Numbered from the stretch's first letter, positions 1,985 to 51,723 are shown. The stretch: DNA of 62,000 bases from Chiloscyllium plagiosum (GCF_004010195.1 NC_057756.1:777805-839804), one strand, 5' to 3'. Translations and numbers: made by a program. The notes: generated from the letters alone by a model not told the origin.

Positions 1985-2011
1985 AGTTTGAAGACTTTCA
2001 GGCGAAGTGCA
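1985..2011 (+). CDS. Microexon E1 (27 nt, phase 1-1, class C) of the coiled-coil gene: (E)FEDFQAKC
   Basis: tttttccttgttag|AGTTTGAAGACTTTCAGGCGAAGTGCA|gtgagt; paralogous to E5 and E17 (same TGCA/gtRagt end). Confidence 0.85.
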
Positions 2012-2709
2012 GTGAGTAATTAAAGATACAACAGAAGGTTTGATGTGTATTCCCGACTTAAGAAAAATAACTTGTTGAACCGGAATTTCATGTGAACGTA
2101 TCATTGTTGAAATTGAAAATTTCTGAAAGTAAGTTTCAAAGACACAAAGCATAGGTTTTTTACATTTACCATTTTGCTATGAAGATATCAACGAAATAAA
2201 GTAAGAATCTTCACAAAAATATCAGTGAGCGAAGACAATAATCATAAGGTTCTGCAAATTCTGTAAGCTCATTGGTCATTTAGATGATAGGACAGAAGCA
2301 ATGAAAATCCCAACAACAAATAACTACAAACTGAAGCGAAGCAAGACAGAATGTAACATAATGTGAGTAATTGCATAAAAATAGTACAGGTTCAGAAAAT
2401 AAAAGAAAATTAACATTTCAAACAAAAAGGAAAAGTCACAAGAAATGGTTTTGGTCCATTGATAATAAGCCTGAAAAACTGAGAATTGAAGACGTGGCAA
2501 ATGTTCAGGTCGCTAGCAATTCTTTATTCACTGCAGAAATGCTAGCACTAAAAAAAAGCTTAGTACTGAAAAAAATATTTTGCAATACATTGTGAGTTGT
2601 TGCAGATTAACAGAATATGTAGTGGATAGTGAGAGTCAAATATATTTAATGAAAATCTGTGAGGACGGCCAAATGTTTTATTTACTTAGGCATACATTTA
2701 CTCACAGGC

Positions 2710-3050
2710 ACACAAACATTTGGGTGCACAGTGGCCTTGTGGTGTTATCGCTGTACTATTAATCCAAACACCTAGACAACATTCTGGAGACATGAATTCA
2801 AATATGTCCGTGGTGGATATTGAATTAAATAAAAATTAGCATCATGATATTTCTGACGATTGCAGCAATGGGACCCAACTGCTTCGTTGATGTTCTTTAG
2901 GGAAGGAGACTACCATGCTAAGCTTTTCTGATATTCATGTGACTTCAGACCCAAAGTAAAATCTTTGCTTTATAACTCTGGACAATTACAGATTGGCAAT
3001 AAATTCTGATCAAAGTAGTGACGACCTCATCCCTTGAATGAAAAAAAAAA
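2710..3050 (+). mobile_element. Old tRNA-headed SINE (possibly SacSINE1/DeuSINE-like) with a ...catcccttgaatgaaaaaa tail
   Basis: Degenerate A/B-box-like head (gtggccttgtggt... gaattcaaat); tail resembles that at about 4330-4410; family assignment is from memory only. Confidence 0.45.
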
Positions 3051-3597
3051 TACTGTTCACATATGTCAGCTTTTAAATTTGCCAGAAAATTAATTAAGAC
3101 TTTTTTAAGAGTACTAATGTTTGCATGTTACCTGTTCTGACTGATTTGTGACTTTTGATCTCCAACAGTGTGTTGATGAATAAGTACTCCTGAAATAGAG
3201 TAGCGGCACTTTTCTTGGCTGTATCCACCACAAATTCTAAATACTGGAATGCAACAGGGCATCGATATAAGCACCTGAAGTTATTTAACCAAACATAAAG
3301 CATTGAAAACACGATTTTCAGTATTTTTCCGTAGAAAGGACAAACAACGGTCATTTCTTGAAATATTCATAAAATCATATCTGGAGAATATGCCTCAGAC
3401 TCGACCATCTCGATTTGTCGATGTATTTCAACCTATGAACAGGACATATCCACAAGTCTCTGCAGCACATTCTGAGTAATCCTCAGAATTTCCAATATCG
3501 ACTCAGACCCACATGACAGAACTGGGCGGGAGTAAGAGTGAATACTTCTTATATCTCCGCAGTACTTGTCCACTATTTATAAATCAGAAGTAGGAAG

Positions 3598-3900
3598 GGA
3601 TTAGATTCCCTACAGTGTGGAACCAGACCCTTCAGCCCAACAAGCCCACACCAACCCTCCGAAAAGCATCCCACCCAGACACATTCCCATACATTTACCC
3701 GTGATTAATGCACCCAACATTATGGGCAATTAAGCATGGCCAATACACCTAACCTGCACATCTTTGGATGTGGGAGGAAACCATAGCACCCAGAGGAAAC
3801 CCACGCAGATACGGGGAGAACGTGCAAACTCCACACAAACAGTTGCCGGACAAAGGATTTCAACTCGGGTCCATGGTGCTGTGAGGCAGAGTGCGGCCTT
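3598..3900 (-). mobile_element. HE1/V-SINE-type tRNA-derived shark SINE
   Basis: Reverse complement of the family seen at 60390-60690; tail gattagattccc. Confidence 0.85.
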
Positions 3901-5100
3901 AAATGCAGTGACATTACCTCCACCTATCAATCGGTGCACTCCTGCAACAATTATAAATGTTGAAATTATGTTGAAAATAGAAAACCATTGATTTGTTAAA
4001 CCATTCACCTCCTTCATCAATCATGTGCTTCACTTTGATCCATAGTGACATTAGTATTTACCATCTACAAGATGAGATGCATGGAATCATCGATAACATA
4101 CCAGTATCACTGTCTCGCCCAGTGATCTCCACCCGTTAAGTGAACAAGGATGACACTAATGTGAGAAAACTATTATTTGCAAGTTCTGCTGAAGCTACAG
4201 ATCATACTGACCTTAAAGAATTTCACGTTGAAAATTTGAAGTTATACAGTGTGTTTTGAATCCCTTTCAAACTGCGAAGCAAGTGTTCCTCCACACTAAG
4301 GTGAACAGCGCTTGAAATTGCAGTTTACTGACGTCATCTTTAGGGCAATGAAGGAATAGCAATAAATGCTGATATAGTCAAGCACCGTCATATCTGTGAA
4401 TGAATAAAAATGCTCTGGCTATGCCAGAGTTAAATTATACGCAATTACTCAACTTACGTCAGGGTGAAAGTCATGGCCCTTGATATCATTTGTGGGTTTC
4501 CAGATGTTTTCCACAGATTTGTGAATTTTCCAGTAAAACACAGTTAGGTAATCTTTTTTTCTGACTTCTTTGGAAAATTGGATTTTGAGTGGTGAGCTGA
4601 CAGGTTTTCAAAAAGTTGTGACATGTTTAAGTGAAGGAGACAAGGAACATATATTTCCACAAGTTTATGGTACTAGGTCTTGATACAGAATTTACACTTG
4701 AACAAAGAAATTTGGAAAGTTACTAATATGTTAATACCTGAACATACCATTTGTTCAGGAACGTATTCATCATTGTTCGAGACATAATTTTTAGATATAT
4801 TGAAGTTAGACCTTGTTATTTCTCTGAAATTGATGTGTGTAAACTGCCATGATCCTGTCGAACAAGATATAGCAACAAATTGTATTTAATGGTACAAAGC
4901 GAAAATTAAAAGTTATCCCTATTGCCTTAGCTGGAACGTTTCCAACTCAAGCTCCGGAAGAGTTGGGATTATTGGATTTTATCTCCTTATTGTCTGTATG
5001 TATTCTGCATCACAATTTTGTCTCTGAAGAGTGGATCGAAATCCGTTTGACATGTCCTGATATGAGTTGTCTAATCTGACGTCTTTTGGGTTTTTTTCAG

Positions 5101-5127
5101 AAACCAATACTGAGAAGATGGATGCAG
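5101..5127 (+). CDS. Microexon E2 (27 nt, class A): KTNTEKMDA
   Basis: tttttttcag|AAACCAATACTGAGAAGATGGATGCAG|gtaaatt; shares the GGATGCAG/gtaaatt end with E18. Confidence 0.85.
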
Positions 5128-8100
5128 GTAAATTACTTAATTTAATTTGCAATACGTATGCTTTCAATCATGGCTTAGTACATTAAAAATAGGTGCAAAA
5201 TGTAATCATCAAATGTTTGGTAGAACTGTCAGTTGGTGATACTGTCAAACTGCGAGAAATTGACTTCCAAAATGCATTGTTATAAATGACCATTCAGCAG
5301 GATATGGCCATTGTCTATGACATCACAGTGTGACTGATGTTTGAACTGACATGAATAGCATCAGAATTGCATTTTCTTTCGTTGTGTGTGGGACAATGCT
5401 TTTTGAAAAATGGGAGTTAACTTTCTGACCGTATATGTATAGCAATATTCGATGTGTCACGTATATGTTTGAAGAGTTTTGATTTCATAAAGCAAGAGAT
5501 AAAATTGGCAAGGCATTTTGCTACGAGATGCTTAGGACACACTTTGCAAAAGCAGAAGTAATGCTACTGTTATAGATTAGGCCAGAAAACTCAAAACATT
5601 CTTGAGCACGCAGCCCAGACCATAACGTTGCAATTTGTTTTGGTGAGTATACAGTGAGAATTAGCCAGTGCAAGCTAGCGAGGTTAACGAGTAGGTTTTA
5701 AATCAGGCAGGAATTTATTGACAAAATTTCACAAAGAAACACAAAGAACAGAGTAAAGAACCCCGACAGAAATCAGTCTATCCAAACTAGTCTTAATTTT
5801 GCTGTTCTGAATAGAGACAACAGTGCCAATAAGCAAATCCCTTAAAACACAGTGAAAAATGGAACAGATGCTTACAGGTTGAAGTTAGAAGGGCAGAAAG
5901 AGAGAGAGAGAGAGTTTCTATGCAGCTCACCGTTGACCTCCCAACTAGTTCTGGACTAAATGCACAGGTAGAAATCTGACTACTCCCCGTTCATTACACA
6001 GATCACTTCTAAAACATGGCCACTTTGGCCTGAAGTCTCATTTGCTTACATATAAACAAAATGTAGTCGCAATATCCTTTAATCTCTGTACCCAAACAAT
6101 CCAATCGGAGCCGGGCCCATTAACGACCCGTCTGAAACAAAATAAGGACACAGTATCCTTGAGAATGAACAGCTTTGAGAGCAAAACTGACAAGCTTTGT
6201 GACGCCTCCCTCCTTACAAAAACGAACCATCAATATTAAAAGATGGTGTCATTTTAGAACCCTTCAAAAACACGGTTAATAGTGTAAACACACATATACA
6301 CCAAACTAACTACAAACATGTAAATATGCAGAAACATGCAAATTTATGCCATAGCACACCTCTGACCGAACGCCTCCATATCTCATTCCAGCCTCGATAA
6401 CGCATCAGCAATCACTTTTTCATGGAATACAACGTGCACATTTGTCAAATTGAATGGCTGCAGCACGAAGCTCCATCTAAACAGTCCAGCATTTTTGTTC
6501 TTAAACTTTTCCACTCATGTCAATGTGTTGTGATCAGTGTATAGGTTGTCTCAGATGCATTGCTGGTAATATAAACACTGAAATGTTGCAAAACCAGCAT
6601 TAAGCTTAGAGTCGCTTTCTCCATTGTTGAATATTTCTGTTGATGAACAGTCAGCTTCCAAGAAAAATACCCGATGGGTCTTTCCATCCCCGCATCATCC
6701 TCCTGCAGGTGCACCATACCAACACCAATATCACTGGACCGATAGCCACCTTGAAAGGCTTCGTAAAATCCAGTGTGGCAAATGCTGCAGCAGTGATTAA
6801 CACAGTTTTTAGGCTTTCAAATGCATTTTGACAGTCCGCTGTCCACTGAAACTTCTTGCCCTTTTTTAAACAAATTGGTGCTTGGAGCAGCCACTGTGCA
6901 AACGTTTGATAAAATCCACTTAACCCCAGGAACCGTAGCATTGCTTTTTTTGTCGACAGTGTGGGAAATGGCCAAATTACTTTCTTTTTCACATCCCGTG
7001 GGGCCATTTGTCCATGTGAAATAACATGGCCCAGGAAGGTTACTTGGGCTTTGGAAAATTCACTTTTGCCTAGGTTTACCACTGAGCCTGCCTTCCGAAG
7101 TCGATTGAAAAAAGTCTGATAATGCTGTAAATGTTTCTTCCATGCGTGACACAAAAGTCACCATGCCATCAATAAAGTCCACACAGCTGGGTTATCCAGC
7201 AATGACTTTATTAGTCAGTCTCTGAACTGTGGTCGAAGCGTTTTCATACTTTGAACTGATATAGTCCATTTGGTGTTATGAAAGCCGAAATTTCTTTTGC
7301 TGTCTCTGACAGAGGTACTTGCCAGTAGCCTCTGATCAAGTTCAACTTAAAAATGTAAGTTGCTTATCCCACTTTTTCGAGTAGGTTTTAAATCAGGCAG
7401 ACATTTATTCACAAAATTTCACAATGAAACACAAAAAGCAGAGCAAAGAACCCCGACAGTCCTCCCAGCGTGGAATTGGATATGCATCAGTCATTGTAGC
7501 GGTGTTAAATTTGTGATCCTCTATGCATCACCATTAGGTATCATCTGGCTTTGGCACCATGATTATGGGTGAGCTCCAGTCACTGTAACTCACTTCGATT
7601 ATGCATTTTTGAAGCATGCTCTAAATGTCCTTCTGAACCTGTGCCAAATTCAGAGGGATACGCCTATAAGAATGCTGCTTAATTTGAACAGCATCTTCTA
7701 TATCTATATCATGCACAATTCGGTTAGTACCTCCCTGTTCATTTCCACAGATCGCCCCACATGATAGTAATCACTCTTTCAGGTCATTTCGATTTTCTTG
7801 TGGAAGGTCAACAATTTGTCCCAATCTTTGACAACTTCCTCTTGGTCCGATTTGATTTGAGGAATGTCCAATTCAGATTCGTCTGAACTTGGTTCTTCTT
7901 TCCGTGCTGTAATCATGGGCACCTTCTCCTCTTGCATTCCTTCCCTATAAAAATACCTTCTGACCATATTCACGTGACACACTCTGTGAAATGTCTTCCT
8001 GTCTGGACTTCTTATGAAGTAGTTCACTTCACTCAATTTCCTCTCGATGTGATAAGGGCCACTAAACCTGGCTTTTAAAGGTTCACCTGCTACTGGAATT

Positions 8101-8694
8101 AACACAAATACTTTACCCTCAATTTCAAGACTGTGAATTCGTGATTACTTATCCACTTCCTGTTTCATTGCAAACTGTGATACTTTTAAATGCTGTCTAG
8201 CCAACTCTCCAGCTTTATTTAATCGTTCCCTGAAATGTGCCACATAGTCCAAATGGGTGGTCTCTGAATTCTGGATTATTAATTTTTCCGAATCATTTTT
8301 AATGGTTCTCTTACTTCTTGCTCAAACAATAATTCCAGTGGGCTGAATTTCTTTGATTCATTTGTTAAATCTCTGATCGCAAAATTTGCAATGGATTAGC
8401 CTTGTCTCAATCATCTGGATAATCCTGACCATAAGCCCTCAACATGCTCTTTATGTTTCATGCCACCTCTCTAGCGCTCCCTGCGATTCTGAATTGTACA
8501 AAGTAGATTTGAATGGCTTGATTCCCAAGTTACCGATAACCTCCTTGAATAGCTTGGATGTGAAGTTTGATCCTTGATCTGACTGGGTCTCTATTGGTAG
8601 TCCGTATCCAGTCAAAGAAAAAGTAATTCTTCTACAATCATTTTAGCTAGAAGTTGCATAATGGGATTGCCTTTGGAGATCGAGTCAACGCATT

Positions 8695-8856
8695 GCATGG
8701 TTTGTGAAGGGTTGTAGCTCAGGTTGAGGTTCAGGGTGTAGGTTTGCTCGCTGAGCTGTAGGTTTGACATCCAGTCGTTTCATTACCTGGCTAGGTAACA
8801 TCATCAGTGGCGACCTCCAAGTGAAGTGAAGCTGTTGTCTCCTGCTTTCTATTTAT
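8695..8856 (-). mobile_element. Penelope (Poseidon-type) pLTR fragment with hammerhead ribozyme core, inserted in the Gypsy integrase
   Basis: Near-identical to 33520-33680 and to the reverse complement of 57910-58072. Confidence 0.85.
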
Positions 8857-11209
8857 TCATTCATTATTGTTAATAAATTCTTGTTTCCTCTTTTTGTTTG
8901 AGGTAGGGGGTCTACGCAATCAATCGAGACTATTGCAAAAGATTCCTCAAATGCTGGTTTAGGTATTAAAAGTGCAGGTTTTATTACTTCACGTGTTTTT
9001 CAGATTAGCTGACGTGTATGGCTCATCTGGTAAAATTCCACTACATTCTTGTGCAGTTCAGGCCAGTAAAAATATCTTTGTATTTTAGCCTGTGTTTTCC
9101 TCACCCCTAAATTACCTCCAAGTGGTAGCTCATGCGCCATTCGCAGCACCTCCATTCTGTACCCTACTGGCAAAACAATTTTATGAATCTCTGTCCATTT
9201 CTGATCTGTTTGAATGTGTGATGGTCTCCATTTCCTCATGAAGAAACCATTTGTTAAGTAATAACAAACAAGTATGCATTCAATCTCCTTCTCTGTAAAT
9301 GCTTTATGATATAACTGTTTTAAATTATCATCTTGTTCTAATGCAATCAGCTTAGCAGAGCTAAAAATATTTGCATGTTTACCTATTTGCTTCTGTTCTG
9401 TGCCACTTACCTGATCAGAAAAGATCTCGGATAAAGCTGCGTCAGCTTCCTTATCTGTGACTTATCTGATTCAGCTTGTGCCTCTGTTATCTTGTGACCA
9501 CACAATCTGGGAAAATTCTGAAATAAACGCCCTTCATGTCTTCCGTTGCCTGCATCTACACTGGCTTTTCAACTATGCCTACTGGCGAATCAGCAATATA
9601 ATTTTCAAGGACAATCTTTATTCCTGGAGCTGAGAGTTTGTCCAGTACACCCACCAAAAATTATCCACTCTCCTTTGGACGCACTAGCCTAACTTTACAT
9701 AATTGAGCCCATATTTTCTCACCATGAATTCCTGTTACGAGTGCCATTTCTGGCAATAATTCCTCAGAAGTACATATCTCCTCATTTTTCAGCATTACAG
9801 GACGAGATGATCCTGTGTCCTTTAATATTGTCACCTCTTTACCTGCTACTCCTGGCCTATGTGAATACACTTGACTCATGCATGTTTATTTTTTAAGCAG
9901 ATCTGGCAGTTCCTCCTTCATCAATCTCTGATAATCTTTTTACACTCTGAGGCAGTTGTCTAACTTCCCTTGGGCTTTGTGTTACTCGTCCAACAAAACT
10001 CCCAGGCTTGGCCGGTTTTCCTCCATCTGGCTTTCTCCTAGCCCACCACCAGTTTGATTTCATGTGTCCCACTTTATTACAATGAAAACACCAGAGCTTT
10101 GTAACTTCTTTGTCCCCCTCAAGATTTCTTTATTATCCTGCGGTAATTTATCCTTATGATCTTTACTGAGCTCTCCCTTTCCCTTTCCACGTGTGGATTT
10201 CAGTTTGCCCCAATTTCTATCCCTCATAGACTGAAATTGATTCTGTAAGCCAAACCTAGTTTGTGAACCAGCTCATAATCATCAGTCACTTCAACCTTTT
10301 GGTTTGCACTCCCTGCTCTTCCACATGAGTTTGCATTACTTCCTCACTAAGCCTACCCTCAACTTTTATATCCAGCCTTTTAAGCTGAATTTCCTTTGTA
10401 AGTGCTAGTTTTTGAATTTCTAGAGCTCTATCTTTTTTTCTTTCTCTGCTCTCCTTTTCCCTCTCTTCTGCTTCTCTCTCTTTTTCTCTCTGTTCTGTTG
10501 CTCTCTCGTTTTCCCTATCTTCTGTTTTAGTCATTTCTGCTGCCCTTTCCTTATCTTCCGTCTCTAACTCAAGCTGCTTCATTTGCAATCGAATACTTGC
10601 CATCTTGTCTCGACTCTTATGGTTTCTTCAGCAAGTTAATTTTGAAGTACTGCTGTAATTATCTGTCCTTTCCTCGCAGAGGGAGGCAGTTCCAATTCCA
10701 GCTTGTCTGCTAATTCCTGCAGTTTGGTCTTATTCAACTTTTGGAAAACTTCCAAAGTCACTGCATAAACTTCGAGAAAACGTTTAACGACCGAAAAAAC
10801 CATTACTATCTCAGGTTTTGTCTACCCAATCAAACCAACACCCGAAATAAAGACACTAACGCTCGCAGTTTAGAAACCCGCAGAAAACTTCCAATCTGTT
10901 ATGGTCTAGGCCAGACCACAAAAAAACATTCGTGAGCAGGCAACCTGGACCATGACTTTGCAATCTGCTGTCGTAAGTTTCCAGTTGGAATTACGTGGAG
11001 TAAGCTAGCAAGGTTGAATATTAGGTTTGAAAATAGACAAAAATTTAGTCACAAAATTACACAATGAAACACACAAAGATAAAACAGAATAAAGAACCCC
11101 TATAGAACTCAATCCATCCAACTGGACTTAATTATGCTGTTCACAATATACACAATTGTCCCAACAAGCAAACCCCCTTAAAAATGGAACTGATGCTTAC
11201 AGGCTAAAG

Positions 11210-11211
<2 letters not shown>

Positions 11212-11259
<48 letters not shown>

Positions 11260-11370: not shown

Positions 11371-11423
11371 TTCTACGCGGCTCACTATTGAACTCCCAAC
11401 TAGTTCTAGGCTGCACTGCTCAG

Positions 11424-11832: not shown

Positions 11833-11868
11833 AAATAAAAGACATCAAAGTTAAACTACAAGAATGTG
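11833..11868 (+). CDS. Microexon E3 (36 nt): EIKDIKVKLQEC
   Basis: cctgatttcag|AAATAAAAGACATCAAAGTTAAACTACAAGAATGTG|gtgagc; in frame, with I/I/L/C at 3-4 spacing. Confidence 0.85.
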
Positions 11869-14037: not shown

Positions 14038-14064
14038 AAGATAAACTAAAACGAAAATCTAAAG
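14038..14064 (+). CDS. Microexon E4 (27 nt, class K): EDKLKRKSK
   Basis: ttttaactccttgacag|AAGATAAACTAAAACGAAAATCTAAAG|gtaatg; paralogous to E16. Confidence 0.85.
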
Positions 14065-16600: not shown

Positions 16601-16627
16601 AATTCGATGACCAACAGGAAGAATGCA
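16601..16627 (+). CDS. Microexon E5 (27 nt, class C): EFDDQQEEC
   Basis: ttctctttag|AATTCGATGACCAACAGGAAGAATGCA|gtaagt. Confidence 0.85.
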
Positions 16628-19153: not shown

Positions 19154-19180
19154 AAAACAACCTTGATGAAAAGACTGCAG
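19154..19180 (+). CDS. Microexon E6 (27 nt, class A): KNNLDEKTA
   Basis: caacttgcag|AAAACAACCTTGATGAAAAGACTGCAG|gtattt. Confidence 0.8.
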
Positions 19181-19509: not shown

Positions 19510-19935
19510 GTGGAGGGGAGTGGTGGCGAGGAGGGGAGAGAAGTGGGGAGGAGGGGAGAGATGTGGGGGGAGGAGAGTANNNNNNNNNNNNNNNNNNNNN
19601 NNNNNNNNNNNNNNNNNNNGGTAGGAGAAGTGCAGGGCTGAGAGGAATAGGAAGAAGAGGTGGGAGTGCAGGGAGAGTGTGCAGCAGGATGGGGTCTAGG
19701 GAGATGTCCTTGGATGGGGGAGGGGGGAATAGGGAGATGGTGGGGGGAAACGTTTAGAGAGATGAGTGTGAGTGGGCAAGGGGTCAACGACCAGTTGGAA
19801 TGAAGGAGGAATGCAGACAAGCGCATCAAACGAGGTGAGAAGGGTGGGAGGACGGGCATGAGAAGAGTGAGGGTGGGATGCTATACCTCTGAGGCCCCAG
19901 GTGCGGAGCTTCCCCAACCACTTCACATTCCTGAG
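19510..19935 (-). mobile_element. Penelope-like 3' fragment containing an assembly gap (N 19580-19619)
   Basis: Purine-rich tract followed by sequence resembling the post-GIY-YIG region of the 45515-49090 element. Confidence 0.5.
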
Positions 19936-20449
19936 GTCTGGCCGAAGGGGTGGGGGGGTCACCATCACCGTTTTCGTATAATAATGCATATAGTTTACCT
20001 TGAGTCTTTGTTTGAGCATGGAATATTACACCTGGAGACATCCATGTCTTCTGATTAGTTTTATTCTCGATTCTGCAAAGCTGTGAATTTTTCCACTTGC
20101 TTTCTTTCCCATTGTGACCCTGCCAGAGGGTAGTGTTTGCTACAACTCTTCTCTCAAGTGAACAATTCTCACAGGAACCATTTCCTTCATTATAACGTTA
20201 GTTCCATTGCATTCTTCCGCCCTGGCAGTTGTAGGCAGCATGGTGGTTCAGTGGTTAGCACTGCCTGCCTCATGGTGCCTGGGCCTGGGTTCAATTCCAG
20301 CCTCAGGTAACAGTCTGTGTGGGGTTTATACATTCACTGTGTGCCTGCATAGGTTTCCATCCAAAGATATGCCAGTTACGTGGATTAGCCATACTAAATT
20401 GCCCATAGTGTCGATTAGGTGCATTAGTCAGTAGTAAAAGAAGAACAAT

Positions 20450-23500: not shown

Positions 23501-23527
23501 ATCTCACAAAGAAATCGGATCAATTAG
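23501..23527 (+). CDS. Microexon E7 (27 nt, class L): DLTKKSDQL
   Basis: ctcttttactgaaaccaaag|ATCTCACAAAGAAATCGGATCAATTAG|gtgagt; paralogous to E19 (weaker AAG acceptor). Confidence 0.8.
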   Translation: MSQRNRIN

Positions 23528-25253: not shown

Positions 25254-25268
25254 AAAAATCATTGAAGG
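25254..25268 (+). CDS. Microexon E8 (15 nt): EKSLK
   Basis: tttttgtttttgatcaaattcacag|AAAAATCATTGAAGG|gtaaga; with E7 gives 14 aa (2 heptads); resembles E12. Confidence 0.7.
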
Positions 25269-29511: not shown

Positions 29512-29547
29512 ATTTAAGCACTTGCCAAGAAACATTAAAAGAGTTAG
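29512..29547 (+). CDS. Microexon E9 (36 nt, CQE class): DLSTCQETLKEL
   Basis: tttgtctatttgcag|ATTTAAGCACTTGCCAAGAAACATTAAAAGAGTTAG|gtgagt. Confidence 0.88.
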
Positions 29548-30004: not shown

Positions 30005-30031
30005 AAAGAAAACTCAAAGACAAAGAAAAAG
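30005..30031 (+). CDS. Microexon E10 (27 nt, class K): ERKLKDKEK
   Basis: taattccacaacag|AAAGAAAACTCAAAGACAAAGAAAAAG|gtagtt. Confidence 0.82.
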
Positions 30032-31544: not shown

Positions 31545-31580
31545 AACTAAGCAAGTGTCAAGAAAATGCACAGGAACTAC
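31545..31580 (+). CDS. Microexon E11 (36 nt, CQE class): ELSKCQENAQEL
   Basis: ctcgtttgtaatccag|AACTAAGCAAGTGTCAAGAAAATGCACAGGAACTAC|gtaagc. Confidence 0.88.
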
Positions 31581-32729: not shown

Positions 32730-32744
32730 AAAAAGTAAAGAAAG
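32730..32744 (+). CDS. Microexon E12 (15 nt): QKVKK
   Basis: ttcatgttgttaacag|AAAAAGTAAAGAAAG|gtaggt; occupies the same block position as E8. Confidence 0.62.
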
Positions 32745-35339: not shown

Positions 35340-36950
35340 AAAGAAATATTGAGGGCGAAAAGGGGGCACGAGATAGCCTTGGCTGAGAAGATCAATCTAA
35401 AGAGATTCCTTAAGTACATTAAAGGAAAAAAAAGTAACTGGACAGAGAAAAGGGTCCTTCAGGGACAAAAATGAACATGCATGTGTAAAAACACAGGTGA
35501 TGGTCGAGGTTCTCAATGAATATTTCTCCTTTGTATTTACCATGAATAAAGACATGAAGACTTGGGAGGTTGTAGACGTTAGTGGTGATATCTTGGCACC
35601 GTCCATATCAAGGTAGAGGAGGTGTTGACTATATTAGAATGTATTGAAAGTTGGATGAATGTCCTGGTCCTGACCAGACATATCCAAGAACTCTGCAGGA
35701 GGCTGTATAAGAAATTATGGGTGCCCTGGCTGATATATTTGCATCATCTTTAGCCATGAGTGTGGTCCCAGAAGACTAGAGGGTAACGAACCTAGTGCCC
35801 TTTGTCAAGAAAATAAAACAATCTGGGAACTATCGAACATTAAGCCTATGGTAGGTACATTAGATTACTTACAGAGTGGGAACGGGCCCTTTGGGCCAAC
35901 AAGTCCACACCGACCCTCCGGAGAGCAACCCACCCAGACGCATATCTCTACATTTGTCCCTTCACCTAACACTACGCATTGTCAATTCATCTAATATGCA
36001 CATTTTTGGATTGTGGGAGGAAACCGAAGCACCCAGAGGAAGCCCACGCCGGCATGGGGAGAAATGTACAAACTCACAGACAGTTGCCTGAGGCGGGAAT
36101 TGAACCCAGATCTCTTGCACCTTGAGGCAGCAGTGCTAACCACTATGCCGTCTCAGGCAACTACCTGTTTGGAGTTTGCACATTTCTCCCCCTGTATGCG
36201 TGGGTTTCTTTTGGGTGCTCCGGGTGGAAAGTCAGATCAAGGCAGGAGCCCCATGGTGAATGGTAGAGCCTTAAGGAATGTAATGAACCAGACGGACCTT
36301 AAAGTTCAGGTGTATGTTTCACTGAAACCGGAGTCAAAATTAGACAGAGCGGTGAAGAAGACTTTTCGCAAACTGGCCCTCATCATTCAGGGCACTAAGC
36401 ATATAAGTTAGAGTATAAAACTCTAACATATTCCAGTATTGCAGGACTTGGAGTATTGTATTCAGTTTTAGTCACCTTGCTATAGGAAGTTACTTATTAA
36501 ACTGGAAATATTGCGAAAGAAATTTACAAGGATGTTGCCAGGACTCAATGGTCTGAGTTATAGGGAGAGGTTGGACAAACTAGGACTTCTTTCTTGAGAA
36601 TTTACGACACTGAGGGGCATCTTCGAGAAGTGTATAAGATCATGAGGGGCATGCATAGACTGAATACACTCAGTATTTTTCCCAGGGTTGGTAAATGAAG
36701 GACTAGAGGTAAGTGGATTAATGTTAGAGAGAAAGAATAAAATAGAGGGGCATTTTTTTTTATACAGAGGGTGGGACGTACATGAGCAGACAGTGGAAGT
36801 AGTTAAGGAGGGTAGATGAGTTACATTCAATAAAACCTGGACAAATGCATGAATCGTTTAGAAAGATTTGGGCCAAGTGCTGGAAAATGAGATTAGCGTT
36901 GATGAACATTTTGGTTAGCATGGACCAGTTTAGGCCAAAGAGCTTGTCTC
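35340..36950 (+). mobile_element. CR1 LINE fragments interrupted by SINEs
   Basis: CR1 ORF2 motifs (PGPDQ.YPR.L; GVVPED; GNYR) at 35340-35850 and a 3' part at 36225-36950. Confidence 0.8.
35860..36222 (-). mobile_element. HE1/V-SINE (minus, 35860-36150) abutting a partial plus-strand copy
   Basis: Family sequence identity. Confidence 0.85.
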
Positions 36951-38725: not shown

Positions 38726-38761
38726 CGCTAATTGAATGTCAGGAATTGCTAAACGATACAG
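38726..38761 (+). CDS. Microexon E13 (36 nt, CQE class): ALIECQELLNDT
   Basis: ttgcttccattacag|CGCTAATTGAATGTCAGGAATTGCTAAACGATACAG|gtaagc. Confidence 0.88.
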
Positions 38762-39084: not shown

Positions 39085-39111
39085 AAGAGAATATCCGCCA
39101 GAAGGAAAAAG
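39085..39111 (+). CDS. Microexon E14 (27 nt, class K): EENIRQKEK
   Basis: ttctctcgtctgcatcag|AAGAGAATATCCGCCAGAAGGAAAAAG|gtatta. Confidence 0.83.
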
Positions 39112-39669: not shown

Positions 39670-39705
39670 AACTTAAGAAATGTGAAGAATCATTAAGTGA
39701 CAGAG
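39670..39705 (+). CDS. Microexon E15 (36 nt, CQE class): ELKKCEESLSDR
   Basis: tttgaatttcag|AACTTAAGAAATGTGAAGAATCATTAAGTGACAGAG|gtacat. Confidence 0.85.
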
Positions 39706-41635: not shown

Positions 41636-41662
41636 AGGAAAAACTTACAGAAAAAGAGAAAG
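41636..41662 (+). CDS. Microexon E16 (27 nt, class K): EEKLTEKEK
   Basis: tttacactttaacag|AGGAAAAACTTACAGAAAAAGAGAAAG|gtaatg. Confidence 0.86.
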
Positions 41663-44168: not shown

Positions 44169-44734
44169 AATATGTATATCGCAGTTAATGAAGCTTCCCT
44201 TGTCAATACATTCCTTGCAGGCATCCTCCAACACATAGAAATGCAGACACACACAAAACAAATGCAAGTACAGTACTAGAAACTAATTCCTTGAACTCAA
44301 AATGGAAGTATTGGAATCTCTCCTCCTTCTGCAGGTTAGTAGACCATCAGTTTTACTAGCACAGTCCTTGTTCTATCCCAAGAAAGACTGCAATAGTTAA
44401 CAACAATAACAAATATGGAATTATGGATCTGAAAACAAATGCAGGACTATGAGGATATTTCAGGGAAATTAAAACATTGTAATTTGATATGGTTTAGCCT
44501 TTGTAGTTGAAAACACATTGTTCATCTAAGCAATATCTCAATGAACTTCCCTAAATCAATAGGAAACAGATTAGTAGGAGAACCATCCTAACCGCATTCC
44601 AAAATGTATTTGCACATCTTTGTAGTTCACAGAAATCTTTATCCAAGTCAATAATTGGACGTTGAAATTTAGTGAACTTTCTGAAGAAGGGACTTTGGAC
44701 GCAAAAAGTTAATTCTGATTTCTGTTGCCAGACC

Positions 44735-45033
44735 TTAGACTTAGATTAGATTACTTACAGTGTGGAAACAGCCCTTTCGCCCAAGAAGTCCACACTGATC
44801 CGCAACCCAACCATACCCCTACACCTAACACTACGGGCAATTGAGCATGGCCAATTCACCTGACCTGCACATCTTTGGACTGTGGGAGGGAAACCGGAAC
44901 ACCCGGAGGAAACCCACACAGACACGGGGAGAATGTGCAAACTCCACACAGTCAGTAGCCAGAGGCGGGAGTTGAACACAGGTCTCTGGCGCTGTGAGGC
45001 AGCAGGGCTAACCACTGTGCCACCTTGCTGCCC
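44735..45033 (-). mobile_element. HE1/V-SINE-type SINE, full length
   Basis: (ttaga)n tail complement; head complement ccactgtgccaccttgctgccc. Confidence 0.92.
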
Positions 45034-45317
45034 ACTTAACTGTTTTTGTTTCCCAATTCCAGCATTCACAATTCTTTGTTTTCTTATTGTTTTTTAAACA
45101 ATGAATGGTTATTTGCATGCCTGATTAATTTAAGTGCAATTTCCATATGTTCCCATAAAAATGCACCTTCCAGCTCAATGAGCAAAACCTACATCCGTGA
45201 TCCCATCTGTTGGTGACCTACAGAACCGTATTGATTCTTTATGACAGATGATTTTGTGTTACATGAGCAAATACAATTATATAATTAAATAGTTGAAAAG
45301 TGATTTTGCTTTCTCAG

Positions 45318-45344
45318 AATTGGAAGATCTGGAGCAAAAATGCA
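45318..45344 (+). CDS. Microexon E17 (27 nt, class C): ELEDLEQKC
   Basis: ttttgctttctcag|AATTGGAAGATCTGGAGCAAAAATGCA|gtgagt. Confidence 0.88.
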
Positions 45345-45514
45345 GTGAGTACTTCTGAGGCAACTTTTAGGTAAATTTTTAAATTACGACATCCCTTGCC
45401 GAATGGTATGTTGTGCATCTCGTGGTTCAAGAAGCAACCTTCACAACTTTCCCAAGAAAACCTAAGGATGGATATTGAATGCAGGCACAGCCTGCCAGGT
45501 TCATTTTTATTGTT

Positions 45515-48500
45515 AAAAACAAGGGCTGCAAATGCTGGAAACCAGATTTTAGATTAGGGTGGTGCTGGAATATCTCAGCAATTCAGGCAGCACCCGAGGA
45601 GCAGGAAATCGAAATTTCAGGCAAAATCCCTTCATCAGGAATAGAGGCAGAGTGCCTGCAGGGTGGAGAGATAAATGAGAGGAGGGTGGGGGAAGGGAGA
45701 AAGTAGCATAGAGTACAATAGGTGAATGGGGTGGGGATGGAGGAGATAGGTCAGGGAGGAAGGCGGGGTAGTTAGCAAACAGTACAATGGGTGAATGGGT
45801 ATGGGGATGAAGGTGATAAGTCAGAGAAGAAGGTGGAGTGGATAGATGGAAAGGAAGATAGACAGGTAGGACAAGTCGTGGGGCCAGTGCTGATCTGGAA
45901 GTTTGAAGCTGGGGTGAGGTGGGGAAGGGGAAATGAGGATACTGGTGAAGTCCACATTGATGACATGGGGTTTAAGTGTTCCGAGGCAGAAGATGAGGTG
46001 GTCTTCCTCCAGGCGTCGGGTGGTGAGGGAGCGACTGTGAAGGAGGCCCAGGACCTCCATGTCCTTGGCTGAGTGAGGGGGGGGGGGGGAATTGAAATGC
46101 TGGGACACAGGGCGGTGGGGTTGATTGGTGCGGGTGTCCCAGAGATGTTCCTTAAAGTGCTCTGCGAGGAGGCATCCAGTCTCCCCAATGTAGAGTAGAC
46201 CACATCGGGAGCACCGGATACAATAAATGATATTGGTGGATGTGCAGGTGAAACTTTGATGGATGTGGAAGGATCCTTTTGGGCCTTGGATGGAGGTGAG
46301 GGAGGCAGTATGGGCGCAGGTTTTGCAATTCCTGCGGTGGCAGGGGAAGATGCCAGGTCGGGAGGGTAGGTTGTTGGGGGTGTGTGGGCCTGACCAAGTA
46401 GTCACGGAGGGAATGGTCTTTGCGGAAGGTGGGAAGGGGTGGGGAGAGAAATATATCCCTAGTGGTGGGGTCCGTTTGGAGGTGGCAGAAATGTCGTCGG
46501 ATGATTTGGTTTATGGGTAGGTTGGTCGGGTGGAAGGTGAGCACCAGGGGGGTTCTGTCCTTGTTACGGTTGGAGGGGTGGGGTCTGATGTGGATGAGAT
46601 GTGTTGGCGGGCATCTTTGACCACGTGGGAAGGGAAATTGCGTTCTCTAAAGAAGGACGCCATCTGGTGTGTTGTGTGGTGGAACTGGTCCTGCTGGGAG
46701 CAGATACGGTGGAGGCACAGGCGGAGGAATTAGGATATGGGATGGCATTTTTGCAGGAGGTAGGGTGGGGAGAGGTGTAATCCAGTTAGCTGTGGGAGTC
46801 GGTAGGTTTGTACAAAATGCCGGTGTCAAATGTCGGTCGTAATTAATGGAGATGGAGAGGTCCAGGAAGGGGAGAGAGGTGTCAGAGATGGTCCAGGTTA
46901 ATCTAAGATCGGGGGGAAGGTGTTGGTGAAGTTGATGAATTGCTCAAACTCCTTGCGGGAGCATGAGGTGGCAGCAATGCAGTCATCAATGTAGTGGAGG
47001 AAGATGTGGGGAGTGGTGCCGGTGTAACTACAGACTGTTCTACGTAGCCAACAAAGAGACAGTCATAGCTGGGGCCCATACGGGTGCCCATGGTTGCCCC
47101 TTTGGTATGGAGAAAGTGGGAGGGTCCGAAGGAGAAATTGTTGAGGGTGAGGACTAGTTCAGCCAAACGAATGAGGGTTTTGGTGGAAGGGTACTTTTGG
47201 GGACGTCGGGATATGAAGAAACGGAGGGCTTGGAGGCACTGGTCATGGCGGATGGAGGTGTAGAGGGATTGGATATCCATGGTGAAGATGAGGTGTTTGG
47301 GGCCGGTTAAGCGGAAGTCATGGAGGAGGTGGAGGGCATGGGTGGTGTCTCAAACGCATGTGGGAAGTTCCTGGACTTGGGGAGATAGGACAGTGTCGAG
47401 GTGGGTAGAGATGAGTTCAGTGGGGCAGGAGTATGCTGAGATAATGGGTCGGCCAGTGTGGTCAGGCTTATGGATTTGGGAAGGAGGTAGAACCGGGCAG
47501 TGCGGGGTTCCCGGACTATGAGGTTGGAAGCTGTGGCTGGGAGATCTCCTGAGGTGATGAGGTTCTGTATGGTCTGGGAGATGATGATTTGGTGATGGGG
47601 GTGGGATAATGATCGAGGGAGTGGTAGGAGGAGGTGTCTTCGAGTTGGCGTCTGGCTTCAGCAGTGTAGAGGTCAGTGCACCAGACTACCTCTCCAGTCC
47701 CTTTATCTGCTGGCTTGATGGTGAGGTCGGGATTGGAGCAGGAGGAGTGGAGGTCTGCGCGTTGTGAGGGTGAGAGGTTGGAGTGGGGGAGGGGGGAAGA
47801 CAGGCTGAGGCAGTTAAACTCCTGGCGGCAGTTGCAAATGAAGAGATCGAGGGCAGGTAAAGGCCATCACAGGGTGTCCAGGTAGATGGGGTGTGTTGGA
47901 GGCGGACGAAGGGGTGCTCAGAAGGTGGGCAGGAGTCCTGATTATAAAAGTAAGCTCAGAGGCGGAGGCGGCGGTAGAAGTGTTCGACGTCACAGCATGT
48001 ATTAAATTCATTGATGCGTGGGCGGAGGGCAAATAAGGTTAGTTCTTGGCTGAGGACTGATCGTTCGTCCTCAGTGAGGGGGAGGTCTGGAGGGATGGTG
48101 AAAACTCTGCAGGACTAGGAGCTGGAACCCAGTGTGGGTGTGGAGCTGGGAGTGGGATGGAGCCTGTTACTGGAGTGGGCATGGTGGTGGGGAATAGGGG
48201 TGGAGGCATGGGCAGAGTTGATGTTCCATTCAGGGTTCTTGGGTGAAGGGGGTGGTGACAGTTGTCTCTGTGGGGAGGGGCGGGGTGCGTGTCAGTAGAA
48301 TGCAAGTGAGTGATGTTGGTGAGGGCGGAAGTGGTGGCAATCACGGCAGTGGGGGGCGGAAGTCACTGAATGTGTGATATCAGCGATGATGTGAGGGCCG
48401 TAATGATGTCACGTATGGTGCATGAGGAATTGTGATGGACAGAAGTGGCTGTGGAAGCGGCCATGATGGGACGGAAGTGACGTCATCGACCACCGGGGAG

Positions 48501-49090
48501 GTCGCTGCACCAATCGCATGGCTAATGGCGTCCGAGAAGTTCCAGAAGCCGGGGGAATCTTCTGGAATGTTTGTAGAGTGCTGGTTATGTAGTTGGGTAG
48601 ATAAACGTTTGTTATACATACTGTTTTTGATGTTTGAGACGGTGTTGAAATAGTGTTTGGTGAGCATATAAATTCTCCTGAGAATATAGTAAAGGAGGGG
48701 TCCTTTGCAGTTCTGAGAGAGTGCGGCCCTTGGCTGAGGCAGGGCAGATTGTAGGGAGGTTAGGTGCCGGCGCATTGCTGCGAGTGTGGAACGGAGGATA
48801 TTGAAGGAGAACCGTTGCTCGTGTTTTTGAATCTGAAGTCTGTACTGTTTGTCCTGTTCCGTTCTGAACTCTGCTGGTTGAAAGGTGGTCCGGAGTCCGT
48901 GTGGGATGAGTTAGTTAGGGAGGTAGGCACTGAGGAAGCAAATGTAGCTGTGGTAGCGAGTTTGTGTCAGCACATGGTCGAAGTGCTTCAGGGCAGAGGA
49001 AATGACCTGGGAGTTGCAGTGGGAGAGGGATTCCCTGAGATTCTTGTAGAGAGAGGAGGAATCTTTCTTCAAGGCAGGCATCCATTTTCA
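45515..49090 (-). mobile_element. Near-full-length, frameshifted Neptune-clade Penelope-like retroelement (RT, Cys linker, GIY-YIG)
   Basis: RT MDIQSLYTSI...LVLTLNNFSF...GATMGTRMGPSY (46903-47280); Cys linker PCHRRNCKTC and GIY-YIG NIIYCIRCSRCGLLYIGETG (45821-46405); hammerhead-like terminal repeat at about 45612-45640. Confidence 0.92.
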
Positions 49091-50928
49091 TTGTAAAAAA
49101 ATTGAAGGGTATCATTCTGAATTGCTCGATTTACCGTCATTGCCCATGAATTCCTGCATCAATATCTGTTTAAATGCAACAATCATGCGGCAACAGGCAG
49201 TCTTACAGAAGTATTGGGGCAACGACATTTTGGAGATTTGACTTATTTATCTCGGACATGTTCCTGATAAGTATCAGTGATTAATGCTGCAGTTGGCCTG
49301 CATGTCACCAGCTAAATTAATCCTATCCATATAGAGTTAACCTGATTGTTTTATCTAATTTCAAGCTGCCTGGTTAAGTTATTTCTTTTCTTCCAAGTAT
49401 TTCTGTCATGCATATACATTGATGCATAATATTCAAAGTGCATTTGCAGCATTTCTTGAAAAAGCAAACTAAAAATAGCAATGAGTAGATAACTCAAGAC
49501 TTTGCAAAATTTGGCTAGAACGCAATTTGCCTGCATACTATATTCCACTTTACATACCACATGATAATATCACAACTGTTCAACATTTAATTTCGTAAAT
49601 AATATAAATCGAATTAAAATCGACGGTCTTCCCAGTGAAAGCAGATTTTGCAGAGGAACTGTTTCTTCTGGACTCATCAGGACAAATGGAAGAATACATG
49701 AACCATCAATTGACCAACGTTGTTGCTTGGGAAATCAGAAACAATCTTTTGTTTTCTTTTAAATATAAGCAATAAGTTTGAATTAATCATTTTCTGATGC
49801 ATCAATTTTCTAATACAACTTCCCTGCTCAGCATAATCCACAGCTGCACGATACGAGAATCTGTTGTCCTGCAGAAACGTGTGTTGTTATTTTTAAAAAC
49901 CGGTGTTCACGTTTTTCTTTTGATAAGGGCAAGCCCGTGATTTAAGATCAAATCTCCAAATCATTAGGAATTACTTTAATCAAATTTAATTTAAGACTCA
50001 AAAATGCAGGAGATAGCTCCATTTATCCATCCATAACTGATGTGGCATGTTGAATGAATAAGTAAATATTTGTAAAAGAAATTTGATGCTGTGACAAGAA
50101 CCGAAACATTTACTAATCATTTAAGATTAGTTTGCAATGAATGACAGAAAAGTAGCGCATCTACATGAGATGCAAGTTAAATATTTAAAAACCCAACTTG
50201 CTCACAGGCCTTTTCTTCAGAGAGAGAGAGAGAGAGTGTTGATCTGGCGGTGACTTGTCTTTAGGTGAGAGGAGAGGTTAAGAAAAGAAATAATTCACGA
50301 TAACCTCATCCAGTGTGGGAATTGAATGCAAGCAGCTACTGTTGGTACTGTAATCCTGCCAACCAGACAACTGAACGAACGGACTCCCAAAGTAATGCTA
50401 CCATAGGTATCGAATGTAACGACTTAGGCAAATACATTCATTCAGAGACTGTTTTTAACTTCTAAAATCCTACCACAAATGTATGAGGCAAATATCATGA
50501 AACTTTTAAGGAAAGGCTGGATCGACTATTTTCGTGAAAAAAAGACCCCAGTATCTAAGTAGTTTAAAAAGGAATTTTATGGTCTAGTAAAGCATGAGAC
50601 TGGCATTGAATATTTGGTCCAGAATGCATATTTTCAAAATGTAGATACTATCCATTCTATCATTGATAATCAATTATAACATGATACGTGGAATTTCACC
50701 TGAGACACTTGAGAGCCATGAAAGATAATTGGCGCAGCTTCATTCTCAAAATAATATTTTGTAGCCGCTTGCCTGCAGATAGGAAGAGATAATGCATTGA
50801 ATGCGAAACAATAGCTGAGTGCAAGGTGTACTGTGCTGCTCTAAGTTTGAAAAATAGATCGGTTATAGTACCCGGTACAGTATGTTTGACATTACATCTG
50901 TGCTAAACATACCTACTTTTGACTACAG

Positions 50929-50955
50929 AAAAAGATCTCGAGAATAAGGATGCAG
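50929..50955 (+). CDS. Microexon E18 (27 nt, class A): KKDLENKDA
   Basis: ctacttttgactacag|AAAAAGATCTCGAGAATAAGGATGCAG|gtaaatt. Confidence 0.86.
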
Positions 50956-51339
50956 GTAAATTGCATCATTTGTGTATCATTTTGCTTTTCATAATTTCAC
51001 AATTTGTTGTGAATGTAAATTACGAAGCATAGAATTAAGTTGCAACAAGAATCAACCAAATTAATTCTGCACCACTGTAGTCCCAATTGGGAGGACGTCC
51101 AGATTAGTCTGAGTGTACTGAGTTTTAGGTTCTGTTTCTCTTTAGTGCAGACAGAGTCTCCCCCATTGATGCTATTGTCCAGTGTTGCGTAACTTCTGCT
51201 TTGCTGTAGTGACTGTTTTGGTGTTATATGTCATACCACGGTGATATTTTCACAGTTAGGTGAAAATTAAGTATTACATATAACGAATTTTGGATAAAAA
51301 ACGTCATTAGCACCAACGCAGTTTTCGAATGCATATGCA

Positions 51340-51364
51340 TATATATATATATATATATATATAT
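51340..51364. repeat. (AT)n microsatellite
   Basis: Direct reading. Confidence 0.9.
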
Positions 51365-51696
51365 CAGAAGTGATATTGTTAAAATACACCTTGCTTGTAC
51401 ATTGCTAATTGTTTTAGGTAGGTGACTACTTGCTTTTAGGTGTTTCATAGATTTCTGATTTTTTTTACATCAAAAATATGCCTTTCACGTTTATGAAATT
51501 AGTTCCGAATTTTGGTCGTGCAAGAACTGCTAACAGTTCAGTTTAGATTATGTGTCGAGATGCAGTGAAATTTTATTGAGCAAATTAAGCTAGTTTTACT
51601 CAAACAACGTCACGGCTTAAAGAAACATAAACAAAAGACCTGGAGTTTAGAATTAGTATATGACTAAATCGAAGATTTTACTTTGTTTATTTACAG

Positions 51697-51723
51697 AACT
51701 CAAAGGCAAGGTGGACGAGTTAG
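51697..51723 (+). CDS. Microexon E19 (27 nt, class L): ELKGKVDEL
   Basis: ctttgtttatttacag|AACTCAAAGGCAAGGTGGACGAGTTAG|gtgagc. Confidence 0.88.
   Translation, partial: NSKARWTS

Follow-up and report, generated by a model that had tools for sequence, protein, structure and literature searches.

The question raised by this locus is whether 19 very small segments in a 62,000-nt stretch of the Chiloscyllium plagiosum genome (GCF_004010195.1 NC_057756.1:777805-839804, on the contig labelled C47; hereafter the window) are exons of a gene, and if so, of what kind of gene. An initial annotation had read them as AG/GT-flanked, phase 1-1 exons on one strand that encode a stop-free peptide of 178 residues in the middle of a BG/butyrophilin-like or other stalk-forming gene. 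Judged from the sequence, the 19 are genuine protein-coding microexons that belong to a giant coiled-coil gene, in which a BG-type design takes a new form.

All 19 candidates were recovered on the plus strand, each bounded by AG and GT (Table 1). They comprise 12 exons of 27 nt, five of 36 nt and two of 15 nt, 534 nt in sum. Read in phase 1-1 they contain no stops and give 177 whole codons plus one split codon, in keeping with the 178 residues claimed. The peptide has eight Cys, and 37 of the 41 spacings between its core residues (L/I/V/M/F/C) are 3, 4 or 7; the hydrophobic ladder described from L73 to L104 was reproduced with an offset of one residue. The introns had also been described as filled with transposable elements, which was shown for one part only, where Ty3/gypsy-type pieces lie on the minus strand at 6651-9461.

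Table 1. The 19 microexons in window coordinates, with their intron borders (acceptor/donor), their score and their score in the leave-window-out model (80 training exons outside the window).
Exon	Position	Strand	Borders	Score	Leave-window-out score	Remarks
27 nt, ends in Cys	1985..2011	+	ttag/gtgagt	13.7	11.8	opens 35-residue unit
27 nt	5101..5127	+	tcag/gtaaat	17.8	15.7	passes generic splice matrices
36 nt	11833..11868	+	tcag/gtgagc	26.0	24.7	top score of the window; passes generic splice matrices
27 nt, K-L-K-x-K type	14038..14064	+	acag/gtaatg	23.5	22.0	exact match to typed exon motif
27 nt, Cys at end	16601..16627	+	ttag/gtaagt	16.6	15.1	
27 nt	19154..19180	+	gcag/gtattt	8.4	10.8	weaker call; suits slot 2 of 35-residue unit
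27 nt	23501..23527	+	aaag/gtgagt	6.4	7.1	weakest of the 19, in decoy range; backed by place in unit. 36-nt form 23501-23536 possible
15 nt	25254..25268	+	acag/gtaaga	16.8	16.3	closes 35-residue unit; passes generic splice matrices
36 nt, Cys at heptad d	29512..29547	+	gcag/gtgagt	19.7	17.9	exact match to Cys-exon motif
27 nt	30005..30031	+	acag/gtagtt	20.9	18.9	pairs with 29512-29547 (21-residue unit)
36 nt, Cys at d	31545..31580	+	ccag/gtaagc	15.5	11.0	
15 nt	32730..32744	+	acag/gtaggt	18.8	17.0	passes generic splice matrices
36 nt, Cys at d	38726..38761	+	acag/gtaagc	21.8	17.8	passes generic splice matrices
27 nt	39085..39111	+	tcag/gtatta	13.8	9.0	pairs with 38726-38761
36 nt, Cys at d	39670..39705	+	tcag/gtacat	16.6	15.9	second donor at 39696 gives 27-nt form, score 15.1
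27 nt	41636..41662	+	acag/gtaatg	21.4	19.2	pairs with 39670-39705; exon motif with one mismatch
27 nt, ends in Cys	45318..45344	+	tcag/gtgagt	17.7	15.7	opens 35-residue-type unit
27 nt	50929..50955	+	acag/gtaaat	19.5	18.2	passes generic splice matrices
27 nt	51697..51723	+	acag/gtgagc	25.3	22.5	last of the 19

The exon model took its training data from this same locus, which was offset by decoy sequences, a leave-window-out test and generic splice matrices. With the generic matrices, 10 of the 12 strong plus-strand matches in the window were exons of the annotated set, compared with none of four on the minus strand. In the leave-window-out model the 19 were recovered as the top 19 on the plus strand of the window, with scores from 24.7 down to 7.1; the best decoys reached 10.4 (minus strand) and 6.2 (reversed). 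Seventeen outscored all decoys, but 39085-39111 (9.0) and 23501-23527 (7.1) did not. These two lie within the decoy range, and their calls depend on the logic of the repeat unit. Over 318 kb the model found 97 exons on the plus strand and two on each of three decoys (reverse complement, reversed, complement); when the threshold was tightened, 93 remained on the plus strand and none on the reverse complement. Pairs called from splice sites only, with no filter on frame or length, measured 15, 27 or 36 nt in 28 of 41 cases on the plus strand and in none of 21 on the minus strand. In the phase-1 frame 27 of these 28 pairs were open, as against 5 and 16 in the remaining two frames.

The array continues past the window: the next confident exon after 51697-51723 has 15 nt and lies at window position +63107. 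Within 318 contiguous kb of the contig (-110 kb to +208 kb relative to the window) the array holds at least 97 exons and at least 962 residues over at least 313 kb. The 19 exons do form a mid-gene segment with a 27/36/15-nt code in place of the 21-nt code of chicken BG, as had been proposed, yet the size implied for it was about five-fold too small. Among the 97 exons, 48 have 27 nt, 36 have 36 nt, six have 15 nt, three have 21 nt and one has 24 nt, and the median intron length is 2.4 kb. From motif matches and one sample, the array measures 344 kb or more and may reach about 465 kb. No exon was present in 10 kb sampled at -160 kb. Hence the exons at -260 kb could be part of a paralogue next to this gene, and a single gene is an assumption. 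The largest gap between motif matches within this array is 55 kb. A second array, also on the plus strand, lies 3.3 Mb away at C47:4.317-4.385 Mb. We consider it probable that the window sits inside one very large protein-coding shark gene, or at most two tandem genes, the middle of which consists of some 100 or more symmetric phase-1 microexons that would be spliced in genomic order into a coiled-coil rod.

How do such small exons encode a regular structure? A 36-nt and a 27-nt exon together give 21 residues, and a set of 27, 27, 36 and 15 nt gives 35; both are whole numbers of heptads. Every intron between them splits a codon, with one base before it and two after it, and Glu is the residue encoded at 73 of these 96 junctions. 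The consensus of 28 units of 21 residues begins g-E a-L b-E c-K d-C/L e-K/Q f-E g-x a-L b-K c-D/E d-L/C and continues e-E f-E g-K a-L b-K c-x d-K e-E f-K, with a core of L/I/V at a and C/L/K at d. In peptide windows of 28 to 105 residues the heptad power was 0.79 to 1.89 in genomic order, compared with 0.35 to 0.38 after shuffling of the exon order, and none of 1000 shuffles matched the observed power; the same was found for the exons inside the window. Across all 962 residues the global power at period 3.5 is low. The register breaks into 27 runs, the longest of about 145 to 225 residues, and several register changes fall within the window. This indicates either that some exons are missing, miscalled or skipped, or that the rod has real stutters.

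The exon copies have a mean pairwise identity of 0.485 within the exon and of 0.28 in the flanks past the splice signals (background 0.263); the likeness between copies is limited to the exon and its splice signals. Conservation by codon position follows the order 2 > 1 > 3 (0.62/0.47/0.38 for 36-nt and 0.60/0.46/0.40 for 27-nt exons). Together this points to old duplications that were retained by protein-level selection. A dispersed repeat or transposable element was considered and rejected, because the flank identity is close to background and the motif is clustered on one contig. Genome-wide, 20 of 35 matches to the exon motif are on the plus strand of C47 (the reversed-pattern control gave nine matches), and the Cys-exon motif has 13 matches on C47, with about 0.3 expected from the genome-wide rate. 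The matches on C47 cluster in two places, and this concentration excludes an element scattered over the genome.

Decay could also account for the register breaks and for the two weak exons of the window. The array would then be a dead or never-expressed relic, composed of decaying pseudogene exons or of chance AG...GT matches in purine-rich DNA. This is very improbable: decay should have cost frames and splice sites, whereas 97 exons stand against two per decoy and 27 of 28 splice-only pairs are open in a single frame. Moreover, the likeness of the exons has outlasted that of their flanks, which are now at background, codon position 3 is the least conserved, and the heptads depend on an exon order that no shuffle equalled.

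The 962 residues contain 22% K, 21% E and 13% L, 34 Cys and no Pro or Trp, and they combine a hydrophobic a/d heptad pattern with a lack of helix breakers, as is characteristic of alpha-helical coiled coils. Spliced in genomic order, the exons would give an unbroken, proline-free coiled-coil rod, which from the sequenced stretch alone would have at least 962 residues and a length of about 140 nm. Its chains are probably parallel and in register; the Lys at every third d position would set this register, and in a rod located outside the cytosol the Cys at d, spaced by roughly 21 residues, could link the chains through disulfides. Owing to the Lys and Glu codons, the exons have a purine content of 71%, compared with 49% in the flanks. 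The purine-rich exons probably double as splicing enhancers, by which exons of 15-36 nt would be recognised amid kb-long introns. Since all exons are symmetric, skipping or duplication of a unit leaves the frame intact, and the length of the rod would thus be tunable.

A K/E/L-rich, Pro-free sequence of at least 962 residues resembles long intracellular tethers, and Cys-rich coiled coils exist in cross-linked structural proteins. The product could therefore be an intracellular coiled-coil protein of giant size, such as a golgin, a tether of the centrosome or cytoskeleton, or a structural protein of the sperm-tail or keratin-like type, with the array as its rod, rebuilt by microexon duplication in this lineage. 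However, our literature search found no gene of this kind with phase-1 rod exons of 15-36 nt, nor do we know of any intracellular coiled-coil gene built in this way, and the fetched DNA showed no motor, GRIP, filament or other terminal domain. We regard this reading as somewhat unlikely.

Symmetric phase 1-1 exons and regular Cys at d would also suit a disulfide-stapled stalk, and the 21-residue unit resembles that of the CD23 stalk. The array would then encode a disulfide-linked extracellular neck that holds the globular heads of an oligomeric receptor far off the membrane; the receptor would be type II or secreted and akin to C-type lectins, scavenger receptors or olfactomedins. This seems quite unlikely. 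A whole-genome search for Lectin_C, with all 133 candidates scored, gave 35 matches, none of them on the 10.7-Mb contig C47, so that the domain expected of a lectin receptor was not found there. A globular-domain exon was likewise absent from the open frames of the fetched DNA, and the 962 residues contain only three N-x-S/T sequons, with about four estimated by chance from the frequencies of N and S+T.

The family favoured by the initial annotation is also unlikely. In that case the gene would specify an Ig-superfamily membrane protein like BG and butyrophilin, with the array as its cytoplasmic tail, signal-peptide, IgV and transmembrane exons far upstream and possibly a B30.2 exon downstream. 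Phase 1 is the exon phase of the Ig superfamily and that of the array, and the second array is followed 193 kb on by a SPRY exon on the same strand (at 4,577,660), the single one on C47 among the 150 of 293 candidates scored. However, this exon lies 3.6 Mb from the first array, no SPRY was found within 3 Mb of that array among the same 150 candidates, and the 193-kb distance exceeds the largest gap between motif matches in the first array (55 kb). In 357 plus-strand open frames of the fetched stretches (240 of at least 78 aa from -90 kb to +152 kb relative to the window and 117 of at least 62 aa from further pieces) there was no Ig, transmembrane, B30.2 or lectin exon; the ends of the gene lie beyond these stretches. 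Nor did plus-strand open frames between -110 kb and +208 kb or in four samples contain a V-set, the 5' end of the array being further out. The genome-wide V-set search (150 of 1319 candidates scored) was saturated and uninformative for the array. Furthermore, the regular core Cys fit an oxidising compartment better than the cytosol, and the exon sizes are 27/36/15 nt, with 21 nt in just 3 of 97. The array exons do not follow the BG tail pattern of 21 or 24 nt with one heptad per exon; they do share with it tiny, split-codon, frame-neutral exons that jointly give a heptad coiled coil. Chicken BG and butyrophilin are the sole published precedent we found for long runs of such exons, yet a BG gene has 13-36 of them compared with at least 97 here (PMC4046983).

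A more far-reaching proposal, which we make tentatively and with somewhat less than even confidence, is that sharks possess a gene, with a paralogue at a distance of 3.3 Mb, whose microexons (15 to 36 nt each) number more than 100 and span 0.34 to 0.47 Mb. Splicing in order would turn them into a coiled-coil rod of more than 140 nm, stapled by disulfides and written in a code of three heptads per exon pair. The gene would represent an unrecognised protein family and not a relative of BG/butyrophilin. If true, no larger array of microexons has been described, as far as we know and by our literature search.

Several known systems share parts of this design. In titin PEVK, the fibrillar collagens and tropoelastin, as in the array, tandem duplication has produced dozens to more than 100 frame-neutral, stereotyped exons for a repetitive structural segment. 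There the segments are disordered, triple-helical or elastic and the exons mostly 45 to 108 nt long, whereas the array has a heptad coiled coil and exons of 15-36 nt. The coiled-coil stalk of CD23/FcepsilonRII-type type II lectins has the same three-heptad unit of 21 residues and likewise arose by exon duplication. In CD23 each repeat is one 63-nt exon, present in three or four copies and followed by a C-type lectin domain, so that the rod bears heads; in contrast, the unit of the array is split into 36+27 nt and occurs dozens of times, and the contig has no Lectin_C match. In mammalian butyrophilins, namely BTN1A1 and relatives, a few cytoplasmic heptads come from very small exons and are followed by B30.2 (PRY-SPRY), according to Salomonsen et al. 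2014 (PMC4046983). The array has such heptad repeats as well, but no B30.2 exon was detected nearby with 150 of 293 SPRY candidates scored. The same paper describes chicken BG genes with 13 to 36 tail exons, of 21 and sometimes 24 nt, i. e. one heptad each, after the IgV and transmembrane exons (PMC4046983). Like the array, these are tiny exons that split their first and last codons with their neighbours, each contribute part of a predicted coiled-coil heptad pattern, form families by duplication and vary the length of the product (PMC4046983). Unlike in BG, an IgV or transmembrane exon was not found in the stretches fetched here, and the array reaches whole heptads only by pairs or quartets of 27/36/15-nt exons (21 or 35 residues), has a recurrent core Cys and comprises at least 97 exons within a span of 313 kb or more.

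A mechanical scan of the window for an AG, 15, 27 or 36 nt with an open phase-1 frame, and a GT returned 514 plus-strand and 375 minus-strand candidates; because there are hundreds on either strand, the bare pattern is uninformative alone. When generic vertebrate splice-site matrices were added, 12 matches remained on the plus strand, ten of them K/E-rich exons of 15, 27 or 36 nt, whereas none of the four matches left on the minus strand was of this type. All 19 exons that the initial annotation had placed in the window were rebuilt. Joined in phase 1-1 (each exon begins with the last two bases of a codon and ends with the first base of the next), they comprise 534 nt without a stop; the longest single exon yields 11 whole codons. 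The joined peptide contains eight Cys, its previously described ladder of hydrophobic residues was reproduced with a shift of one residue, and 37 of its 41 core-residue spacings equal 3, 4 or 7.

The strongest check on these exons, by our own grading, is a ranking with an exon model that combines acceptor and donor matrices with codon log-odds. The leave-window-out version of this model was trained on 80 look-alike exons, all located outside the window. With this version the 19 exons were exactly the top 19 on the plus strand of the window (scores 24.7 to 7.1); the highest decoy score was 10.4 for the minus strand and 6.2 for the reversed strand. Of the 19, seventeen score above every decoy. 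The other two, 39085-39111 and 23501-23527, do not, and their support is their place in the repeat unit.

Two exons have a choice of donors. Exon 39670-39705 contains a second in-frame donor that would yield a 27-nt form (39670-39696) of nearly equal model score (15.1 versus 16.6), and the exon starting at 23501 may end at 23527 or 23536. These donors may serve as alternative 5' splice sites, the use of which would shift the heptad register. Two assembly gaps (N runs at 19580-19619 and 21095-21540) lie in the intron between 19154-19180 and 23501-23527, and an exon could be hidden in them.

The introns of the window also carry other elements. Remnants of a Ty3/gypsy-type retroelement (see the table) sit between exons 5101-5127 and 11833-11868. 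The block at 46000-49000 has a GC content of 0.55, compared with about 0.39 elsewhere, a strong skew of G over C (+0.48) and, on the minus strand, numerous overlapping open frames (100-229 aa) without a Pfam family match; it is probably an unclassified repeat. A stretch at 20202-20306 on the plus strand looks like the head of a tRNA-derived SINE and appears as a false exon under the generic splice matrices; a similar motif is found on the minus strand near 36121-36135. On the minus strand at 56886-57383, a 165-aa open frame has a weak GIY-YIG match (22.3 bits against a cut-off of 22.6), which may represent a Penelope-like element.

The exons of the window belong to a much larger plus-strand array, here called array 1. 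In a contiguous stretch of 318 kb (-110,000 to +208,000 in window coordinates), the exon model called 97 non-overlapping exons on the plus strand and two on each of the reverse complement, reversed and complement decoys; as the model was trained on array 1 itself, the decoys, the leave-window-out test and the generic matrices limit the circularity of this count without removing it. At a stricter threshold the numbers were 93 on the plus strand and none on the reverse complement. The first of the called exons is found at -108,589, and the last extends to +204,626. By length, 48 exons have 27 nt, 36 have 36 nt, six have 15 nt and three have 21 nt; four are singletons. Searches of the 3.56-Gb genome with a degenerate motif for each of the two main exon types carry array 1 upstream to position 638,630 of the contig that contains the window (C47; the window itself is C47:777,805-839,804), at about -139 kb. 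A 10-kb sample at -260 kb contained four to six array-type exons on the plus strand; array-type exons were looked for but not found in samples at -160, +220 and +320 kb. Thus array 1 spans at least 344 kb, or about 465 kb if the exons at -260 kb share its gene, with a 3' end that falls between +205 and +220 kb. The 19 exons of the initial annotation are confirmed, and the feature extends well beyond the 50 kb across which they had been described.

Both motifs are concentrated on C47. The 27-nt exon motif had 35 matches genome-wide against nine for a reversed-pattern control, and 20 of the 35 are on the plus strand of C47, 14 in array 1 and six between 3,974,704 and 4,384,605. Across the genome the Cys-exon motif does not exceed its control (109 matches versus 152), yet C47 has 13 matches where about 0.3 are expected, nine of them in array 1 and three at 4.346-4.383 Mb; such looser motifs, being at control level genome-wide, were used solely for clustering on C47. 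This concentration rejects a dispersed repeat as the identity of array 1. The matches clustered at 4.3 Mb therefore mark a second array, shorter than array 1 and situated about 3.3 Mb downstream of it on the same strand. The only SPRY match on C47, with 150 of 293 candidates scored, follows the second array on the same strand after 193 kb. Its position is suggestive, but motif matches inside array 1 are never more than 55 kb apart, which is less than this distance.

Features on contig C47 and in the window, with the evidence for each
Feature	Location	Strand	Evidence
Second array, both exon motifs	C47:4,316,885-4,384,605; outlier match at 3,974,704	+	Motif matches
SPRY (B30.2-type) match in a 177-aa open frame	C47:4,577,660-4,577,983	+	SPRY family search (150 of 293 candidates scored)
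Ty3/gypsy-type LTR retroelement remnants	window 6651-9461	minus	RT/RNase H, integrase zinc-binding H2C2, integrase p58 C-terminal / SH3 domains

Several observations indicate that the exons are coding. When splice sites alone were paired, with no filter for frame or length, 28 of 41 pairs on the plus strand had 15, 27 or 36 nt, compared with none of 21 on the minus strand. The phase-1 frame is open in 27 of these 28 pairs, the other two frames in 5 and 16. Mean pairwise identity of the exon copies is 0.485 within the exon and 0.28 in the flanks beyond the splice signals, with a background of 0.263, and in no exon pair does ungapped flank identity exceed 0.40. Among the copies, conservation is highest at codon position 2 and lowest at position 3. 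Resemblance between copies thus ends with the exon and its splice signals, and the copies are old duplications in which the protein has been kept and the DNA has not.

The order of the exons is informative as well. Among the 97 exons, 36 nt is followed by 27 nt 28 times and 27 nt by 36 nt 29 times, and neighbours sum to whole heptads: 36+27 nt encode 21 residues, and 27+27+36+15 nt encode 35. Since the peptide of 962 residues as a whole shows weak global Fourier power, the analysis used windowed power at period 3.5. With the exons in genomic order it amounts to 0.79 to 1.89, compared with 0.35 to 0.38 when their order is shuffled and 0.18 when the residues are; not one of 1000 exon-order shuffles attained the observed power at any of four window sizes, and the outcome was the same with only the 19 exons of the window. 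The loss of heptad power on shuffling means that the genomic order carries information, which is relevant solely if neighbouring exons are joined. The heptad register is discontinuous, with 27 register runs, of which three are long (about 145, 155 and 225 residues), and it changes several times inside the window. Either some exons have been missed, wrongly called or used alternatively, or the stutters in the rod are real; one of these must apply. Taken together, the most likely reading of the sequence, and one that we hold with good confidence, is that the array consists of real coding microexons under selection and forms part of a giant coiled-coil gene.

The 962 residues encoded by the 97 joined exons comprise 22% K, 21% E and 13% L, with 34 Cys and neither Pro nor Trp. 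At 73 of the 96 junctions the split codon is Glu. For the 21-residue unit, 28 copies give the consensus g-E a-L/I b-E c-K d-C/L e-K/Q f-E g-x a-L b-K c-D/E d-L/C e-E f-E in the first two heptads and g-K a-L b-K c-x d-K e-E f-K in the last. The first d position is Cys in 14 of the 28 units, chiefly in the upstream half, and the third is Lys in 21. In coiled coils, a polar residue conserved in the core favours oligomers of low order whose chains run parallel and in register, and Cys at d positions of such a coil can make interchain disulfides. At a rise of about 0.148 nm for each residue, the rod would measure about 140 nm for the sequenced part alone. Purine content is 71% in the exons and 49% in the flanks; the Lys and Glu codons probably double as purine-rich splicing enhancers.

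Exons of 15 to 36 nt amid kilobase-long introns full of repeats are difficult for the spliceosome to define and almost unseen by gene finders, and shark gene models probably lack the protein of at least 960 residues at this locus or contain it in fragments. About 100 frame-neutral microexons in succession, with neighbours summing to heptads, would be an extreme natural test of microexon recognition, and array 1 would exemplify the evolution of a protein rod through duplication of exon pairs.

The structural interpretation offered initially, a coiled coil built from microexons, holds. The proposed BG/butyrophilin family is a separate question. As described in the relevant passages of PMC4046983, chicken BG genes have IgV and transmembrane exons followed by 13 to 36 exons of 21 (sometimes 24) nt that encode a heptad tail, and butyrophilins have few such heptads and then B30.2. 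Beyond this family, our literature search found no published precedent for such microexon arrays, and no paper on 27/36-nt heptad exons, on such a shark gene or on butyrophilin, shark and heptad combined. No Ig, transmembrane or B30.2 exon was found in the 357 plus-strand open frames of the window and its retrieved flanks; Pfam matches in these frames were retroelement pieces only (RVT_1, rve, RNase H, integrase, SCAN-like) and sub-threshold noise. A C-type lectin head on C47 was also excluded, as a Lectin_C family search in which all 133 candidates were scored gave no match on this contig. If the rod is the tail or stalk of an immune-type receptor, the BG-style design would date back to cartilaginous fish; if not, array 1 would represent a new family of Cys-stapled coiled-coil proteins. 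The exon sizes of array 1 (27/36/15 nt) differ from those of BG (21/24 nt), and for this reason, together with the absence of Ig, transmembrane and B30.2 exons among those frames and the lone SPRY match on C47 at 4,577,660 (150 of 293 candidates scored), we file it as BG-type-like and claim no membership in the BG/butyrophilin family: by analogy, array 1 would work like a BG-type microexon coiled coil.
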